Shown: positions 583 through 7,264 of the stretch, one piece after another
Layout of the letters: the number at the start of each line of letters is the position of its first letter
Position numbering within the stretch: position 1 is the first letter of the stretch
Origin: Promethearchaeota archaeon
Lineage (GTDB): Archaea; Asgardarchaeota; Odinarchaeia; Odinarchaeales; JBHLKK01
Length of the DNA: 12,714 nt
Direction: 5' to 3'
Assembly: GCA_048939465.1 (NCBI GenBank)
Contig: JBHLPL010000054.1
Span: 1-12,714, forward strand
The notes under the pieces: model-generated
Databases searched by the model: none
Told to the model about the DNA's origin: nothing
What the model saw: only the letters and a program-made list of their open reading frames with translations
Program-made: the position numbers and the translations under genes

Positions 583-661
583 AACTCGGAACCGAAACGC
601 CTTTTGCACAAGATTCTTGCCAAACAAGATTAGACTGAGCTGATAAGAACAACATCGTTGA

Positions 662-979
662 TTGCTCCTTTCTTTTGGCAAAGACAGCGGTACCTATACA
701 ACGAATTCTTCGACAACGCCCTTTGGCACCTTTAAGGCAATGTATGAGGGTCATAAGGATTCTGTATCTTCATTCAACGTTACCAGTCAAATGTACTTCA
801 TGACAATCGGTTTCACAAATTGGGATAGCTACAGCGTTGACAATGATCCAGAATTCGTTGTATTTCCTGAGACGTTCCAGGGAGTCGTTGGGGATTCAAT
901 GCTCTTTATCGCTATGGGAGCAGCAGGAGTCGTGGTATTAGTAGCTGCAGTACTGGTTGTAAAAAGAAGACGCATTTAA
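662..979 (+). pseudogene. C-terminal fragment of a membrane-anchored secreted/surface protein (probably 5'-truncated)
   Basis: It has a beta-rich, S/T/F-rich segment with an NVT sequon and a YFMTIGF..WDSYSVDNDPEF motif. A hydrophobic helix (MLFIAMGAAGVVVLVAAVLVV) and a KRRRI stop-transfer tail follow. There is no signal peptide or SD, and in-frame stops lie directly upstream (TGA 659-661, TGA TAA 641-646). Confidence 0.6.
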
Positions 980-994
980 CCCCCCCCTTTTTTT
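980..994 (+). terminator. Archaeal oligo-T terminator (C8T7)
   Basis: CCCCCCCCTTTTTTT starts immediately after the TAA at 977-979. Oligo-T tracts are the established archaeal intrinsic terminator. Confidence 0.6.
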
Positions 995-1010
995 ACCTTC
1001 CTCTCCGCAA

Positions 1011-1043
1011 GAAGACTCCATCCGGAAGGGTGGAGTAGTTTAC
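1011..1043 (+). repeat. Orphan copy of the IS200/IS605 right end (GAAG guide, hairpin, TAGTTTAC)
   Basis: GAAGACTCCATCCGGAAGGGTGGAGTAGTTTAC matches 2814-2845 (GAAGCCCCATCCTTTAGGGTGGAGTAGTTCAC) at 27/33 positions. The 14-mer AGGGTGGAGTAGTT is exact at 1027-1040 and 2829-2842. Confidence 0.85.
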
Positions 1044-1066
1044 CTACGCCGGTAGTAACCTTTGAC

Positions 1067-1115
1067 TTATTCGGTGGGAAGTCCCCCTCCGAAAGGTGGA
1101 GAGATAAAAGCCAAA
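1067..1115 (+). repeat. IS left end: imperfect hairpin with outer stem
   Basis: The inner hairpin is TCCCCCTCC-GAAA-GGTGGAGA (1082-1102, two mismatches and a bulge). TTCGGT (1069/70-1075) can pair imperfectly with GCCAAA (1110-1115) as an outer stem. Confidence 0.65.
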
Positions 1116-1126
1116 AGGCATTTATA
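1113..1126 (+). promoter_or_regulatory. Archaeal BRE/TATA promoter of tnpA (probably leaderless)
   Basis: Purine-rich AAAAGGCA is followed by TTTATA (1121-1126), about 24-29 nt upstream of the ATG at 1150. There is no SD. Confidence 0.55.
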
Positions 1127-1149
1127 GTTATAAACGAAGAATCATAACT

Positions 1150-1557
1150 ATGCGATATAAGCTAGATAAGTCATCACATTCGGTGCATGCGCTGCAATAT
1201 CATCTTGTTCAGTGCGTCAAACACAGGCGAGATGTACTGGATAGCAAAGAGATTGTAAACCTTCTCAAACAAAAGATACATGATATAAGTGCAACTTTTG
1301 AAGTGGGTGTGCTCAACATAGAATGTGACAAAGATTATTTTCATATGATTTTCAGAAGTAAACCTACTTTAGACATACCAAGATATATGAATGCCCTAAA
1401 AACCATCACCTCCCGAGAAATACAGCGCAATTTCCCAGCAGTCAAGGAAAAACTCTGGAAGGGAGCATTCTGGTCACGATCATATTTTTTGACTACCACA
1501 GGACAGGTCACTTTTGAACAGCTGAAGAAATACATTGAAAATCAGGGGATGAGATAA
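1150..1557 (+). CDS. tnpA: IS200/IS605 Y1 (HUH) transposase TnpA, probably inactive (HUH reads Y-F-H)
   Basis: It has the YHLVxCVKxRR, LWxGAFWSRSYF and KKYIENQ (catalytic Tyr128) motifs. The expected DHxH reads DYFH (codon TAT at 1336-1338). Its TAA overlaps the tnpB ATG (TAATG). Confidence 0.93.
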   Translation: MRYKLDKSSHSVHALQYHLVQCVKHRRDVLDSKEIVNLLKQKIHDISATFEVGVLNIECDKDYFHMIFRSKPTLDIPRYMNALKTITSREIQRNFPAVKEKLWKGAFWSRSYFLTTTGQVTFEQLKKYIENQGMR

Positions 1558-2840
1558 TGTACCTAACACAAAACATTAGGATTTTTCCTGCACCAGAACA
1601 AGAAGAGGTACTCTGGATACTCTCAGAGAAATGTAGACTTATCTATAATTTTGCGCTGGCTGAACGTAGGCACGCTTATAAAAACGGAATCAAGGGTATA
1701 GACTATACTAAACAGCAAAATGACCTCCCCTACATTAAAGAACAACACCCCGAATACAAATGGGTGCATTCCAAAGTCTTACAATCGGTTCTCAGAATAT
1801 TAGATGCCGATTATGCATCTTTCTCTGCTCTTCGAAAAAACGGACATACTATGGCTCGACATCCGTGCTTCAAAGGCAAGAAGTACTTTACCACTATGAT
1901 TTACAACCAGTCTGGGTTCAAAATCGACCACGGCAAAATCTCTTTTTCTCATAACTACGACGGAGTGTCACTGGAGTTTGTCATACCCGAAAAATTCTCG
2001 TTCATTAAAGATGCAGAAGTCAAGCAAATCGCCATTTTCAAGAAGCGTGAGAAGTATTTTGTGGGCATAACATATGAAGTCAAAGCCCCCACTTATGCAG
2101 ATAATGGTAGGTACCAAGCCATAGACTTGGGCATTACCAACATCGTAACCGCCGTAAATTCTGTGGGAAAATTCCTAGTGGTGAAAAATCGACGTCCAGA
2201 CAAATACTGGAATCCAAGAATCGCCAAGGTACAAGCGCGGAGGGACAGATGCAAGAAATATAGTCGAAGGTGGAACTTGTTCAACAGTATCAAACGAAGG
2301 TACGAATGGAAACGTGATAATCAGGTAAGGGATTTCCAGCACAAATTTAGCAAGAAGTTAGTAGAGAATACCAGGGCTAATACTATCATAGTGGGCGATC
2401 TTGAGGTCAAAACGATGCCCAAGTCAAATACAGTGCCGAAACCAATAAGGAAGGGGTTAAACCGTGCAACACAGAACACAGGTGCGATGGGACGGTTCGT
2501 ACAGTTTCTAGCCTACAAAGCCATGAAAGTAGGTAAAAGAATAATAGAATTTGACGAACGCAACTCGACCAAAGAGTGTTGCGTGTGTGGTAAACTCCAT
2601 TCCATGCCGATTTGGAAACGAGTTATGAAGTGTAATTGTGGTAACGTGATTGCAAGAGACAAGAACAGTTGTGTGGTGCTTATGAAGCGTTACTTATTAC
2701 AGAATGCCAAGTGGACAGGCTGTCAAGAATTTCTTGATAATCTGCGACACACAGCCGAAGGTAAAACGAAAGTACCCAATCCGTTTTTTGGATATGGTTC
2801 GGAGGACTCGCAGGAAGCCCCATCCTTTAGGGTGGAGTAG
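1557..2840 (+). CDS. tnpB: RNA-guided endonuclease TnpB (IS605 OrfB), rearranged-RuvC type
   Basis: The N-terminal HTH is IRIFPAPEQEEVL..CRLIYN. RuvC-I is AIDLG (D190), RuvC-II is IIVGDL (G280), followed by FDERNST (E334). The Zn finger is CCVC..CNC and RuvC-III is RDKN (D368). Confidence 0.95.
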   Translation: MYLTQNIRIFPAPEQEEVLWILSEKCRLIYNFALAERRHAYKNGIKGIDYTKQQNDLPYIKEQHPEYKWVHSKVLQSVLRILDADYASFSALRKNGHTMARHPCFKGKKYFTTMIYNQSGFKIDHGKISFSHNYDGVSLEFVIPEKFSFIKDAEVKQIAIFKKREKYFVGITYEVKAPTYADNGRYQAIDLGITNIVTAVNSVGKFLVVKNRRPDKYWNPRIAKVQARRDRCKKYSRRWNLFNSIKRRYEWKRDNQVRDFQHKFSKKLVENTRANTIIVGDLEVKTMPKSNTVPKPIRKGLNRATQNTGAMGRFVQFLAYKAMKVGKRIIEFDERNSTKECCVCGKLHSMPIWKRVMKCNCGNVIARDKNSCVVLMKRYLLQNAKWTGCQEFLDNLRHTAEGKTKVPNPFFGYGSEDSQEAPSFRVE

Positions 2841-2865
2841 TTCACGGAGTGAAAATATCTTAGAA
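2740..2865 (+). ncRNA. Predicted TnpB omegaRNA (reRNA): 3' part of the scaffold plus a flanking guide; true 5' end not determinable
   Basis: Nested stems: CTGCGA 2742-2747/TCGCAG 2808-2813; CCGAA 2755-2759/TTCGG 2798-2802; GT..AC-GAAA-GT-AC 2761-2775; CCAATCC 2776-2782/GGAT(A)TGG 2790-2797; right-end hairpin 2818-2837. The guide is inferred as the ~20 nt after TCAC (GGAGTGAAAATATCTTAGAA). Confidence 0.65.
2814..2845 (+). repeat. IS right end (guide GAAG, hairpin, cleavage site TCAC)
   Basis: The sequence is GAAG-CCCCATCC-TTTA-GGGTGGAG-TAGT-TCAC. The tnpB stop codon TAG (2838-2840) lies inside it. Confidence 0.85.
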
Positions 2866-2898
2866 TAGTTTAGTAACTTGTCGGTGGAGGCAGGATTC

Positions 2899-4989
2899 TT
2901 GCTCCGTAGTCTATATATATTCTCTAAGACCGGTGATACCCTTTTCACCAAATTCTTCGGGGAAGATATGATTGATGAACAGCTATTCTCGGGCTTTGTA
3001 AGTGCACTGTTCTCCCTGGCTCAGGAATTCGGGCATCGGGGCATGGAAATCATGAAAATGGATAATCTGAAGTTCTTTTACGATTTTACCGACAGACTGA
3101 TTTTTGCCATCTCGGCAGATGAAGGGGACGAAGAAATCGCTATTAAGAATCTATTGGCCACGATCCGCGATAGGTTTCTTGAAAGGTTCGGCAAGGTATT
3201 GACAGATTGGAGGGGTGGAGACGTATCCGCATTCAAGGATTTTGAAAGCGACGTCTGGGAGATTACGAAATACGGAATTCCTCCCGAAGGACTGAAACTG
3301 TTTTTGGCTCCTCCTTTCTCCTTTAACAGAAGAAAGTTGAAGAGCGCACGGACTGGGGCAAAGAATCTGGAAGCCGATGTAGACGTATCTCACTCTTTGG
3401 ATAGCGAAATCGCCACAATGTTTGCACTGGTTGAGGATAGGAGATTCAAAGGGAGTGGCTTTCTTAGAAAAAGGCCTGCAGAGACCATCGATTTTATCTC
3501 ACGCATTTTATGGCCTATTTGGTTTGTTAAGATTGATGAAGAGAGATTTATGCCTCTGGACGGCCTGTCCGGAGAAGATCTGTCGGTCCCAAGACTTGAT
3601 ATGAAAAATCTGGAGAATATTGAAAAGGCTATTAAGAAATTGTCTTTGGATGAATCTGTTGAGGGGCTGAGCGATATAGAAAAGAACTTAGCAAAGACTA
3701 TCGATGAGACTATCATTACAAAGGCACTCGTGAGCTTTGAGGTTTTGAAAGCAGTAAGAAAAGTGGCTCCTTATGCCAAATATCAGAGTCTAAATCTGAC
3801 TGCCGCAATTCGCCCCTCACTGTCCTTGAAAGAGGCACTTGGGATCGGTGATAATCTTAGAGAAACTCTGCGAAACACCAACACGATTGCTCTAAAGCTG
3901 GAAGAGGTTGCAAAGGCAGTAGACGAGGTCACTAACAGACTACTCAGTGAGATTGAGAGCGGTGTATCTTCTATTGAGGCGGATTACTCAGGCAAAATCG
4001 AAGAAGCCCAGAAGAAGGTCGACGCGAGAATCTCGGATATCGAGAAAAGGAAGATCCAGGAGCTTAGCCCAGTTGAGCAGTGGAGGGAGGAGGAGCGGAC
4101 AAGAATCGTTAACGAGTTCAGAGTCTTTCTGTTGCCACTAGAGCAGAGTTTTGCGAATCTTTACAATTTGATTAAGACACATTGTGAGAATTTATCGAAG
4201 ACTGAAGAAGTTCGGGCATTCCTTGACATTGTCAATGTTTCTTTTGACCAAGTAACTGAGGCCTTCAAGGAGTCTCAGGCAGTGCTGGACGAGATTAGGA
4301 TCAAAGCGGATCAGTATCTTGAGCAATTAAGAATGGTAGATGAAAGAACTGAAACCAGCAAGAGTCAGATAAACGACAAGTACGAAAACATGGTCAAGGA
4401 GCAAAGAAAGCAGCTATCAGTTTTCAAGGAAGAGAAGGAACGGATGCTGAAGGAGAAGGAGGCTCTCAGGCAATCCATAATCGAAAAGAAAGAAGCGATT
4501 CTTTCCAGAGTCTCTGAGATCAAAGAGAAGTCTCTGAGTGAGGAACATCGTCTCACAGGATTCCTTCTCGAGATCCCCGACCCGTTAAGGATTCAAAGGA
4601 TTTTTAGATTCCACATCCCTCTGTATGTGGCCAAGTATCTCGCTCCAAAGAATGAAACAAGGTATTTTGTGTCGTCTCCCTTGGTCTTTCCCGCTGGGAA
4701 AAATCTGAGGAGAGAATCTTATCTCGAGCAGACGATCCCTGTGGAACCGTTTGATGATGTACTGACAAGCCTGAACATAAATCTGGAAAAAATGATAAAC
4801 GAGAGAAAGAGACTTCAAAAAACCATTGATGCCTCGGCTAAGAAGAGCAACCTCCTTGACAAACCTAAAGTAAGATCCGTCATTGCCGAGGGACTCGATA
4901 AGTTCGAAAGGACCGAGCTGATTAACAGGAAGGATCTCTTGAGATTAAAGGAAGCTCTGGTAGAAGCATTCAGAAAAGGAACAGATTGA
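2899..4989 (+). CDS. Longin-domain / long coiled-coil fusion protein (Asgard-type eukaryotic signature domain); ~696 aa from TTG 2899, 703 aa from TTG 2878
   Basis: The N-terminal ~120 aa (LYIFSKTGDTLF..LFSGFVSALFSLAQEF..LIFAISAD..FLERF..WRGGDVSAFKDF) have the beta-beta-alpha-beta-beta-beta-alpha-alpha longin pattern. About 320 aa of E/K/L-rich heptad helix follow at 3590-4550. SD GGTGGAGG (2883-2890) sits 8 nt before TTG 2899. Confidence 0.8.
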   Translation: MLRSLYIFSKTGDTLFTKFFGEDMIDEQLFSGFVSALFSLAQEFGHRGMEIMKMDNLKFFYDFTDRLIFAISADEGDEEIAIKNLLATIRDRFLERFGKVLTDWRGGDVSAFKDFESDVWEITKYGIPPEGLKLFLAPPFSFNRRKLKSARTGAKNLEADVDVSHSLDSEIATMFALVEDRRFKGSGFLRKRPAETIDFISRILWPIWFVKIDEERFMPLDGLSGEDLSVPRLDMKNLENIEKAIKKLSLDESVEGLSDIEKNLAKTIDETIITKALVSFEVLKAVRKVAPYAKYQSLNLTAAIRPSLSLKEALGIGDNLRETLRNTNTIALKLEEVAKAVDEVTNRLLSEIESGVSSIEADYSGKIEEAQKKVDARISDIEKRKIQELSPVEQWREEERTRIVNEFRVFLLPLEQSFANLYNLIKTHCENLSKTEEVRAFLDIVNVSFDQVTEAFKESQAVLDEIRIKADQYLEQLRMVDERTETSKSQINDKYENMVKEQRKQLSVFKEEKERMLKEKEALRQSIIEKKEAILSRVSEIKEKSLSEEHRLTGFLLEIPDPLRIQRIFRFHIPLYVAKYLAPKNETRYFVSSPLVFPAGKNLRRESYLEQTIPVEPFDDVLTSLNINLEKMINERKRLQKTIDASAKKSNLLDKPKVRSVIAEGLDKFERTELINRKDLLRLKEALVEAFRKGTD

Positions 4990-4996
4990 GCTGCTA

Positions 4997-5317
4997 TCAT
5001 GTCGTGTATGTGCTCGTGGCTGGCTTCTTGTCTGGCATCCTACCTACTTTGATCTCTCCGTACTTCTTTTCAAATTCGCTGATGTTCTTGCCCAATGCCA
5101 TGAACAGCTGTTTGGCGGTTATCGGGGAAGTCTGTATTTCTACCTCGAATACGCGTTTTACTTCGCTTGGCGGTCGATCTACTTCTGTAAGCATGATCCT
5201 GTCATTGTAGAATGTTAAGCTGAAAACCACCGGATTGTGTGCCATAACTGCTCCCATGCTATAGATCTGGCGGAAGTCATCACTGTCGACTATTTTGATT
5301 TTAGGCTTAAAACTCAA
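4997..5317 (-). CDS. DUF3467 family protein
   Basis: The pattern IYSxG..AHN...FSLTF ... EIQTSPITAKQLFMALGKNISEFEKKYGEI matches the DUF3467 consensus as recalled. SD GGAGGTGA (complement of 5324-5331) sits 6 nt before the TTG. Confidence 0.8.
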   Translation of the reverse strand: MSFKPKIKIVDSDDFRQIYSMGAVMAHNPVVFSLTFYNDRIMLTEVDRPPSEVKRVFEVEIQTSPITAKQLFMALGKNISEFEKKYGEIKVGRMPDKKPATSTYTT

Positions 5318-5342: not shown

Positions 5343-7094
5343 CTATTTCGGCTTCGTCTTAAAAAATGTGGCGATTCCAATGACGAGTATTACGCCGGAT
5401 ACGGCGCCAAAAATCCAAACACTGGAGGACTCATAGGTGTTCTCCCGGACAACCACGGTGGAACCATCGGCAGCAACCGACACTATTACATGCTCTGCAC
5501 CGTCCCTACCGTAGAACAAACTGCCAATTTGGAATTCTCCTTCGTTCTCGTCTTCAAACACCCCGTCATTGTTTATATCGATTTTGATTGCATATCCGCC
5601 CGTGTCATTATAGACTCCATTACTGTTATTGTCTGCAAGTATGACCAGATAGTCCCCGTCTAGGAGGTTCAGGGTACCGTTATAGTACGTTTCGGAGAAT
5701 ATCCTCGCTCTCGAACCATTTCCGGCGAAATCTGTCCGATAAAGCCTTGTATCAATTGTCACGTTGCCATCTAGGGTTGCATTTTCCCCGCTCGCATAAC
5801 TGTTGTTCTGATCAGCATCAATATCAATATGATCGTATACTCCGTCCGAGTCTGCATCAACCAAGACATAATTTAGCTGTCCTGCTGTGTGAGTGAAGCC
5901 GCTTTCGAAGTATGAAAGTGCGGTTATGTTCGCTGAAAGAGCGTAATCCCAGGCGAAATTGAATGCACGGTCCAGCGATACGATGAAGTTGACGCTGGTC
6001 GTTATGAGCAACTCGTCTTGCGTGATATTCTGATCCCCGTTGAGGTCAAAGCACGAGACGTTGAAGACGTTGATTGAGTTATTATCGATGAATACTGCAT
6101 AAATGCTTTCATTTTCGATGGATACACCATCGCCATCCAGGTCAAGATTGAACGCTCTGTAGTGATAGTGTGCCATTATGGTGGCATTGTGGGTGACGTT
6201 TTCCCAGTAAAGCTCGAAGTAATAGCCATTCACTGTAATTGTTGTCTCCGTGCTGTTGAACTTCTCATAGGAATCAAAAGTGTTGTTCTTGTCCAAGTCG
6301 ATATCAATCTGATCGTATACGCCGTTACTGTCTAGATCAACCAGTGTGAAATTGAGGATTTCGAGTGTTTGGTCCTCATCCATATCGACCGAAAAGCCTC
6401 CGTCTCTATAATAGGAAAGGAGGCCGAGGTCCACATATACTGGATCGCCTCCTACCTGGCTTGCGTTCAGAATGAATACCGTGAAATTGTTATCCAAAAG
6501 GGTAACTACTCCTCTGTCAGGTATCGCTGTTGCATCTGACATATTATCGTCGCCATTGAAATCGATATAAACGGTATCCCACACATAATCGCTGTCGTTA
6601 TCATCTATGCCGAACCACAGACTTTGAGTCTGACCTAGAGAAGCATTCACCAGAACCTCTATTTGGCCCCACGTTCCATTATTGAGGGTGGGAGAATCTG
6701 ATACCAAAGGATTGACCGCGAGATTGAAATACGTATCTCCGATTTGCTGGGTACGATTTGTGGCACCGGTCAGGGTTGCGTTAACCAAGGCTGTGGTCTG
6801 ACTCTGGTTGTTAGGTTGCGGTGTGTTATTGACAGGAGAAGTTAGACCGTGATCAAAGTCTGCCCCCGCTTGCGGATCTACCTGGGTGAGAGGGGGGATC
6901 GCCAGTTGCGTTATGGTACGCAGAATGGGCTGACTTGAGAGCGGCGAGTTTGCAGGCGACCCTTCGGGCTCAGAGGTTGTTGCTGTAAGGCTGGTGCTGT
7001 ACTGGGCTGCGCTAACGCCTGATATGAAGAGTGATAGCATTAGGATAGCTGCCAGACTTGTCATTACGAAATGTTGTTTTAGTATTCTTATCAT
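5343..7094 (-). CDS. Membrane-anchored cell-surface glycoprotein with five ~80-aa Dx[DN]xDG-type (putative Ca2+-binding) repeats; ~583 aa from ATG 7094, 595 aa from GTG 7130
   Basis: It has a Sec-type signal peptide (MIRILKQHFVMTSLAAILMLSLFISGVSA-A) and a P/S/T/Q-rich linker. The repeated motif is LVD.DS.GVYD.IDID.D.NN, and there are about 27 N-x-S/T sequons. The C-terminus has a TM helix and a KTKPK tail. SD GGAGG (complement of 7102-7106) sits 7 nt before ATG 7094. Confidence 0.85.
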   Translation of the reverse strand: MIRILKQHFVMTSLAAILMLSLFISGVSAAQYSTSLTATTSEPEGSPANSPLSSQPILRTITQLAIPPLTQVDPQAGADFDHGLTSPVNNTPQPNNQSQTTALVNATLTGATNRTQQIGDTYFNLAVNPLVSDSPTLNNGTWGQIEVLVNASLGQTQSLWFGIDDNDSDYVWDTVYIDFNGDDNMSDATAIPDRGVVTLLDNNFTVFILNASQVGGDPVYVDLGLLSYYRDGGFSVDMDEDQTLEILNFTLVDLDSNGVYDQIDIDLDKNNTFDSYEKFNSTETTITVNGYYFELYWENVTHNATIMAHYHYRAFNLDLDGDGVSIENESIYAVFIDNNSINVFNVSCFDLNGDQNITQDELLITTSVNFIVSLDRAFNFAWDYALSANITALSYFESGFTHTAGQLNYVLVDADSDGVYDHIDIDADQNNSYASGENATLDGNVTIDTRLYRTDFAGNGSRARIFSETYYNGTLNLLDGDYLVILADNNSNGVYNDTGGYAIKIDINNDGVFEDENEGEFQIGSLFYGRDGAEHVIVSVAADGSTVVVRENTYESSSVWIFGAVSGVILVIGIATFFKTKPK

Positions 7095-7264
7095 CTCTGG
7101 CCCTCCGCTGGCTTCTCCTTTAATTGCCACTTACTAATTAATCTTTTTGATTTGTGATAGAAGAAGGGATTAAATCCGAAAGCCGAACCCAGATTTTAGT
7201 CGATAGTTAAATATAGTTACACATAGTAATATACGAACAAGGCCGGGTTGGTCTGAAATTAGAC

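Follow-up and report, generated by a model that had tools for sequence, protein, structure and literature searches.

A longin domain joined to a widespread hairpin-stalk module in Asgard archaea: a possible small-GTPase-coupled scaffold

Introduction

Longin domains are a fold on which small GTPase switches dock in eukaryotic membrane traffic. Asgard archaea encode dozens of small GTPases together with longin and Roadblock proteins; their targets are almost unknown, and operon context is rarely informative (Tran et al., 2024, PMC10933270). That Asgard genomes encode longin proteins of several domains is already known (Liu et al., 2020, 10.1101/2020.10.19.343400; Tran et al., 2024, PMC10933270). 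Here we analysed a gene of this kind at positions 2899-4989 of a 12,714-nucleotide stretch of DNA (the window; contig JBHLPL010000054.1 of assembly GCA_048939465.1, a Promethearchaeota archaeon of the order Odinarchaeales), in which a longin domain is joined to a part that we call the hairpin-stalk module.

The closest described proteins are the Asgard longin-GTPase (LG) fusions, which have the same longin subtype (Liu et al., 2020, 10.1101/2020.10.19.343400; Tran et al., 2024, PMC10933270). In contrast to them, the longin is followed here by a module of ~560 amino acids (aa), with neither a G domain nor a Walker A motif. The eukaryotic longin platforms (AP sigma/mu, zeta-COP, TRAPPC4/synbindin, SRX of SR-alpha, and the first longin of Mon1/Ccz1/Fuz) are matched only marginally in sequence, with 23.9 versus 22.5 bits, and no eukaryotic counterpart of the C-terminal module was detectable. 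An orthologue of AP sigma or COPI zeta was rejected, the match being confined to profile positions 1-97 of 142 and the protein having 696 aa compared with ~140-160 aa. The tri-longin guanine nucleotide exchange factors (GEFs; Mon1/Ccz1, Fuz/Inturned, HPS1/HPS4) contain three longin/Roadblock-like domains, whereas one longin was detected here; the N-terminal half of the module's head gave no longin or Roadblock match when modelled alone, a weak negative because this piece is not a compact domain.

Longin SNAREs (Sec22b, VAMP7, Ykt6) likewise consist of an N-terminal longin followed by helical sequence and are among the best structural matches. As a longin SNARE the protein was rejected: it has no SNARE motif (no PF00957 match) and no transmembrane (TM) or lipid anchor, and its ~120-residue helices form an intramolecular hairpin. 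SMC and Rad50 proteins also have a split head with an antiparallel coiled coil, but the hairpin is far shorter here and has no hinge or zinc hook. An SMC/Rad50-like ATPase was discarded as well, with no [AG]x4GK[ST] motif and no SMC_N or AAA Pfam match found; the Walker A pattern occurs as a chance match in only one of 33 family members. Nor did the protein match an SMC- or ATP-synthase-related stalk family, which an initial annotation of the window had named as an alternative identity. A further Asgard protein, Znr_CC_PH_SB (cog.011556), was proposed as a component of the endosomal sorting complex required for transport (ESCRT)-I (Makarova et al., 2024, PMC10936438). It is broadly alike, being Asgard-specific, ~650 aa long, composed of a beta-rich part, a coiled coil and helical hairpins, and not found in eukaryotes, but it differs in its N-terminal Zn ribbons and its genomic link to Vps20. 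To these descriptions the present analysis adds a phylum-wide count of the module, the paralogy of the longin to LG proteins of its own genome, data on selection and on populations, and evidence that rules out cog.011556.

Results

The gene encodes a longin domain and a hairpin-stalk module

The gene product is best explained as a soluble 80-kDa protein of two units, the longin (residues 1-125) and the hairpin-stalk module (~134-696). The features of the gene are as follows.

2899..4989, + strand: complete coding sequence, 696 codons plus stop (4987-4989); open reading frame (ORF) list and translation
2884..2891, + strand: Shine-Dalgarno-like GGTGGAGG, 7-8 nt 5' of the TTG; direct reading of the sequence
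2899..3273, + strand: longin domain, residues 1-125, acidic, isoelectric point (pI) 4.6; AlphaFold2 (AF2) model, Pfam, Foldseek
3274..3297, + strand: low-confidence linker, residues 126-133; pLDDT <50 at 128-131, and unfused members begin just beyond
3298..3825, + strand: head, N-terminal half, residues 134-309, pI 8.7; AF2 models, alignments
3826..4197, + strand: hairpin helix 1, residues 310-433; a single helix in AF2, pLDDT mostly >90, periodicity 3.65
4198..4209, + strand: hairpin tip, residues 434-437; four non-helical residues between the long helices (AF2)
4210..4557, + strand: hairpin helix 2, residues 438-553, antiparallel to helix 1; AF2
4558..4755, + strand: head, C-terminal half, residues 554-619; AF2 strands 568-581, 587-592 and 595-597 rejoin the sheet
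4756..4986, + strand: C-terminal four-helix domain, residues 620-696; AF2 helices 620-635, 637-649, 656-671 and 677-695

The full protein was modelled with AF2 from a 36-sequence family alignment (mean pLDDT 86, pTM 0.66). Residues 1-125 of the model show the order beta-beta-alpha-beta-beta-beta-alpha-alpha that is canonical for longins (DSSP: E2-9, E14-19, H27-43, E50-54, E57-63, E67-74, H79-103, H110-125). The Pfam model Clat_adaptor_s (PF01217) matched residues 1-99 with an E of 4.5e-5 and 23.9 bits, which is marginal compared with its gathering score of 22.5. Foldseek searches with residues 1-130 retrieved AP-2 sigma with an E of 5.5e-6 and a probability of 1.0, as well as zeta-COP and Sec22b, the last with a template modelling score (TM) of 0.74 by target. 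Longins of the GTPase-activating protein (GAP) type had lower scores (GATOR1 10.8, C9orf72-SMCR8 9.6). The N-terminal longin that the initial annotation had placed at 2899-3270 is thus confirmed as a true longin by Pfam, strand order and Foldseek, and a PAS or GAF fold, which had been considered in its place, was given neither by structure nor by Pfam. The absence of a TM helix and of a lipidation motif, also claimed there, agrees with our analysis: the best 19-residue Kyte-Doolittle window reached only 1.07, and no lipidation signal was found.

In the model, an alpha/beta head formed by residues 134-309 and 554-619 is split by an inserted antiparallel helical hairpin of ~18 nm, and the protein is basic from residue 554 onwards (pI 9.7). 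Since the two ~120-residue helices start and end in the same head, they run antiparallel and give an ~18-nm hairpin, not a 45-nm rod. Longin, linker, alpha/beta segment, helical region and C-terminal alpha/beta plus helical domain had all been listed before and are all present close to where they had been placed. What had been read as an extended heptad region of ~320 aa (~3590-4550) is not a single rod but two antiparallel helices (3826-4557), and these amphipathic helices have a hydrophobic periodicity of 3.6-3.65, not 3.5.

The fold of the hairpin bears on the earlier suggestion that a longin plus a long rod follows the logic of a tether, in which case the protein would be a eukaryote-style long-range vesicle tether similar to golgins or EEA1. 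The combination of a longin with long helices, and the trafficking-related proteins encoded by Asgard genomes, would fit such a role. In the model, however, the helices fold back on themselves as an ~18-nm antiparallel intramolecular hairpin in place of a long parallel dimer. Pfam and sequence analysis of the 696-aa protein revealed no membrane-anchoring domain (no TM helix, GRIP, FYVE or lipidation signal) and no Pfam tether family above threshold, and the module mostly occurs free of a longin. The tether suggestion was not borne out, a golgin/EEA1 tether was rejected as a candidate, and we regard this explanation as the least probable of those discussed here.

The hairpin-stalk module is a conserved and widespread family

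An exhaustive phmmer search with the protein yielded 267 proteins at E<=1e-3, falling into three groups: full-length relatives of ~650-700 aa, numerous ~540-550-aa proteins whose match is confined to residues ~160-690, and ~110 proteins that share the longin alone. Homology of the module extends end to end over ~540 aa, phmmer matches reaching residues ~135-693. Judged from these alignments, the non-longin part is a conserved family and not a low-complexity coil. In the head N-terminal half the best-conserved motifs are a P-F strand (139-140), an E-L-A helix, an R-x-K-G-x-G loop, L-W-P-x-W and D-G-L (D221); the returning head strands contain P-x-Y and P-P motifs, with Y576 conserved and P594 invariant, and the four-helix domain has a conserved N-L-L motif and G665. 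In the family alignments the conserved columns are concentrated in the head, not in the helices.

The survey covered the phylum Asgardarchaeota with 301 sampled genomes. The family profile, which matches the window with an E of 1e-163, found members in 236 of these genomes, in 76 of the 90 high-quality genomes and in 62 of the 70 genera, with one to six matches per genome and a single copy in the window's own genome. Named members come from metagenome-assembled genomes (MAGs) labelled Hodarchaeota, Hermodarchaeota, Promethearchaeota, Helarchaeota, Freyarchaeota and Thorarchaeota. The profile search found no member in the 21 genomes of one GTDB family (f21), in the four of f2, a small-genome family of the order to which the window's genome belongs, or in two other genomes of the window's genus (78-82% complete). 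ESM Atlas clusters of the family matched the structure with a TM of 0.65-0.80 by target; some are labelled Bathyarchaeota or Thermoproteota, labels that are unchecked, so that an Asgard-only distribution is not established.

None of the ~540-aa forms matched a Pfam family. PDB sequence searches, with the single protein as well as with the profile, gave only compositional helical matches (apolipoproteins, designed bundles, MCPs, haemagglutinin), and a fold search with the whole AF2 model gave only generic long-helix matches for the non-longin part. The head N-terminal half modelled alone had no PDB fold match and matched only the family's own clusters in the ESM Atlas; feature searches there with the two head halves yielded nothing above 0.79. 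Because this head piece lacks its C-terminal partner strands and is not compact, the missing fold match does not prove a new fold. The earlier statement that the architecture corresponds to no characterised family agrees with the Pfam, PDB sequence and profile searches, and a literature search found no description of the module or of its fusion to a longin. In a separate case, residues 1120-1377 of a 1715-aa protein (P0134) without a Pfam family match the longin and the first head half (query 5-265, E 1.8e-5).

These data also bear on the idea that the protein is a structural, self-assembling coiled-coil protein, part of a cytoskeleton-like structure or lattice scaffold, with the longin as one of several accessory heads. 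A very widespread, multi-copy family encoded in housekeeping neighbourhoods would suit this idea, as would ~120-residue amphipathic hairpin helices with a periodicity of 3.6-3.65 and matches that are limited to generic helical proteins such as apolipoprotein, Smc coiled coil, BAR and YscO. Polymerisation is, however, unsupported by any of the results, and it is the head motifs, not the helices, that are most conserved, the rate of nonsynonymous substitution (dN) being highest in the hairpin. We regard a self-assembling structural protein as improbable.

Longin, Rab-like GTPase or nothing at the N-terminal position

The module mostly occurs without a longin. Longin-fused frames (650-736 aa) were found in at least six GTDB families, namely the window's own and f12, f19, f16, f7 and f18; unfused frames (520-590 aa) predominate in f6, f9, f27 and others. 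Some family members end in a Zn ribbon.

One genome (G041) encodes five paralogues: one longin-fused, one Rab-fused, one with an N-terminal extension without Pfam match, and two unfused. The Rab-fused paralogue (P0164; G041:C7:109862-111931, L070/L078) has 690 aa, in which a Ras-family domain (PF00071, E 3.7e-56, residues 8-168) occupies the slot of the longin and is followed by a Pro/Thr/Val-rich linker and the module. This fusion was detected in two of the 301 genomes, both of one genus, the second being a 94%-identical orthologue (G058:C44:40912-42957, L079). A quick maximum-likelihood tree of the module distributed the longin-fused members over at least four clades, with unfused members interspersed and an unsupported backbone. 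The longin fusion may have arisen once or several times, the tree with its unresolved backbone forcing at least two changes.

In family f9, which is probably Lokiarchaeia, many genomes also encode Rab-like GTPases in frames of 540-660 aa (e.g. G088:C9:6596-7174, G212:C1:812084-812701, G019:C214:35398-36921). The family profile did not recognise the long C-terminal extensions of these f9 GTPases as the hairpin-stalk module.

The longin belongs to a subtype that is repeatedly fused to small GTPases

Among the 111 nearest relatives of the longin, 22 match Fuz_longin_1, and in 14 the polypeptide also contains a Roc, Arf or Ras domain; RING, TRASH, TackOD1, TIR or a prenyltransferase toroid is present in others. 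Its closest relatives in the window's own genome are longins of longin-Arf-like GTPase fusions, two of which are 33-36% identical to it (E 4e-22 and 1e-20). By its sequence relatives, the longin belongs to an Asgard subtype in which direct fusion to Arf/Rag-like small GTPases recurs. Further fusions of this subtype include an alpha-alpha toroid of the prenyltransferase type (PF00432, E 5e-30), RING/PHD, TackOD1, TIR and TRASH (P0034, P0049, P0114, P0152, members of alignment A4).

The same genome contains 18 loci that match the Arf GTPase model, eight Roadblock loci and three longin-GTPase fusions. As the Arf model also matches GTPases in 12 of 14 control genomes, the 18 loci are to be read as small GTPases in the broad sense. 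Co-folding of the longin (1-130) with one longin-Arf-like GTPase of this genome gave a score of 0.23 (mark 0.32), which speaks neither for nor against binding. Taken together, the replacement of the longin by a Rab-like GTPase in one genus and its paralogy to Arf-like-fused longins are two independent lines that point indirectly to small-GTPase biology; binding itself is putative. To this extent the GTPase link suggested in the initial annotation is supported.

It is also conceivable that the longin works independently of GTPases, as an intramolecular lid, a targeting domain or an oligomerisation domain that regulates the stalk module in the manner of Sec22, Ykt6 and VAMP7. Several VIA alignments to sigma-type adaptins include residues near 560-567, so that the segment after the hairpin may pack on the longin in the model, and no GTPase gene is linked to the locus. 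The nearest sequence relatives of the longin, on the other hand, are GTPase-fused and not of the SNARE type, the protein has no SNARE motif and no membrane anchor, and the same slot holds a Rab-like GTPase in a paralogue. A GTPase-independent longin seems unlikely to us, though it is the main rival of the scaffold reading favoured below.

The gene is maintained under purifying selection

The frame on the + strand is uninterrupted from 2878 to 4989. TTG at 2899 is the likely start codon because GGTGGAGG lies 7-8 nt upstream and homologues have exactly the resulting length: all three close database homologues are 696 aa long (100%, 82% and 72% identity), the 72%-identical one from a MAG labelled Hodarchaeota by NCBI. 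The ratio of nonsynonymous to synonymous rates (dN/dS) is ~0.16 in comparison with the 82%-identical orthologue and ~0.09 in comparison with the 72%-identical one. Every region of the gene is constrained, the longin most strongly (dN 0.07), and the hairpin shows the highest dN.

The gene is also covered by sediment and mangrove metagenome contigs of other studies, which differ from it by substitutions only, with no indel inside the coding sequence; of the 20 best-supported substitutions, 15 are synonymous and five are not. The longin-stalk gene is real and is maintained under purifying selection.

Genomic neighbourhood

Two features flank the gene in the window.

994..2846, + strand: IS200/IS605 insertion sequence (IS) element with tnpA (1150-1557) and tnpB (1557-2840); Pfam and NCBIfam, insertion point from the IS-free relatives L001 and L004
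4997..5317, - strand: convergent DUF3467 gene, 106 aa; PF11950, E 4e-12, 7 nt past the stop of the longin gene

The IS element is inserted ~52 bp upstream of the start codon, in a short intergenic region. The junction between element and gene is also present in contigs of other samples (X8, 1653-4345; X7, 2796-5230), and loose ends at 992/1002/1035 and 2845 correspond to further IS copies elsewhere. The upstream gene of close relatives (L001:6536-9900) codes for a surface glycoprotein of 1042 aa that has a signal peptide, a TM anchor at its C-terminus and 31 N-x-S/T sequons. In the window (633-993) this gene is cut to its last 105 codons (ORF 662-979) and ~3 kb are missing; since the junction is also bridged by a contig of another sample (X3, record 10, 432-1389), the loss is probably a real deletion and not a misassembly.

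DUF3467 is the only neighbour kept in close relatives, where it has the same place (L001, L002, L004); it is not kept in other families. Neighbourhoods are kept within families only, and no neighbour is conserved across them. Housekeeping genes, Alba and CofG/H among them, surround the gene in f19 and f7.

Large secreted proteins were noted near the gene in some lineages. In f12 (L043:11564-17503, L044, L045, L046, L055, L056), sequon-rich proteins with a signal peptide, of 1168 to 2481+ aa, are encoded ~2 kb from the longin-fused gene, and in the window's own lineage surface glycoprotein genes lie on both sides of it (window 5343-7130, - strand); the pattern is absent in f19, f7 and f16. As a separate observation, an unfused 540-aa module gene lies between the genes for the large (PF00330) and small (PF00694) subunits of an aconitase-family enzyme in a MAG labelled Promethearchaeota (L005:6706-10151). 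Genes for these two subunits are normally adjacent.

The neighbourhood also has to be weighed with respect to an ESCRT-associated or membrane-remodelling component, for instance a relative of Znr_CC_PH_SB. In G041 the longin-fused gene is located 6-9 kb from ESCRT-III genes and in G038 11-16 kb, the layout of the protein is broadly like that of cog.011556 (PMC10936438), and Zn ribbons are present in some family members. Against this, the genes between the two loci in G041 encode unrelated enzymes, and in all f12 genomes where both were placed they are on different contigs, so the proximity is not general. Even with a cut-off of E<=1, Pfam did not match any family member to Vps23, Vps28, Vps37 or CdvA. 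A cog.011556-type gene was recovered in its published context (L35Ae, MetE, Vps20) in the f9 genomes G206 (L094:3753-5741) and G170. The G206 protein is not matched by the family's hidden Markov model at E<=10, and hhalign gave a probability of 1.2%; identity with Znr_CC_PH_SB was rejected accordingly. An ESCRT-associated role is thus very improbable.

Discussion

We tentatively favour the possibility that the protein is a scaffold coupled to small GTPases, a reading to which we give slightly less than an even chance. The part that works or assembles would be the hairpin-stalk module, and the N-terminal position would act as an input socket that lineages fill with nothing, with a longin or with a Rab-like GTPase. 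In this protein, a small GTPase would be docked or regulated in trans by the longin, or the longin would pair with another longin or with a Roadblock domain in the way of the eukaryotic longin platforms, and localisation or assembly of the module would thereby be tied to the nucleotide state of the GTPase. The folds, the family and its distribution, the domain swaps, the paralogy to longin-GTPase fusions and purifying selection are results of the analysis, whereas we infer GTPase binding, any GEF or GAP activity and the module's own role. As to the last, we would guess that the module associates with itself, or that its conserved basic head binds a partner or an anionic surface.

Several points weigh against a GTPase-coupled scaffold. 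SNARE longins, among others, operate without GTPases. The evidence for GTPase binding is indirect, and the neighbourhoods compared across families do not share a gene for a GTPase, a Roadblock or a longin protein. Fusion to a Rab-like GTPase is rare (two of 301 genomes, one genus), and one domain may take the place of the longin without being the partner to which the longin binds. As most members have no N-terminal domain, the core function of the module is independent of the longin. The head fold has no match, which leaves the activity of the module to guesswork. Regarding a GAP role in particular, the GAP longins of FLCN, NPRL2 and SMCR8 have a G-P dipeptide directly before strand 2, beside the arginine finger (PMC12290439); it is not present in the sequence of the loop preceding strand 2 of our longin, so that a GAP role of this type is not indicated.

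A wider proposal, which we consider doubtful, is that the module is the common effector of an Asgard-specific small-GTPase pathway, present in cis to a Rab-like switch, joined to a longin platform or free. If true, these proteins would be a prokaryotic precursor of the way in which eukaryotes combine a GTPase, a longin regulator and an effector scaffold, and their fold would have no known counterpart.

A nearly phylum-wide module that bears a longin or a Rab-like GTPase at one position is a candidate output of Asgard GTPase signalling. The sampled f9 genomes encode the unfused form, and cultured Lokiarchaeia would be relevant if they carry the module. Should the GTPase link fail, the module would still be a widespread Asgard family for which these searches found no annotation. 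If it holds, the module bears on the origin of GTPase-regulated cell organisation before eukaryotes.

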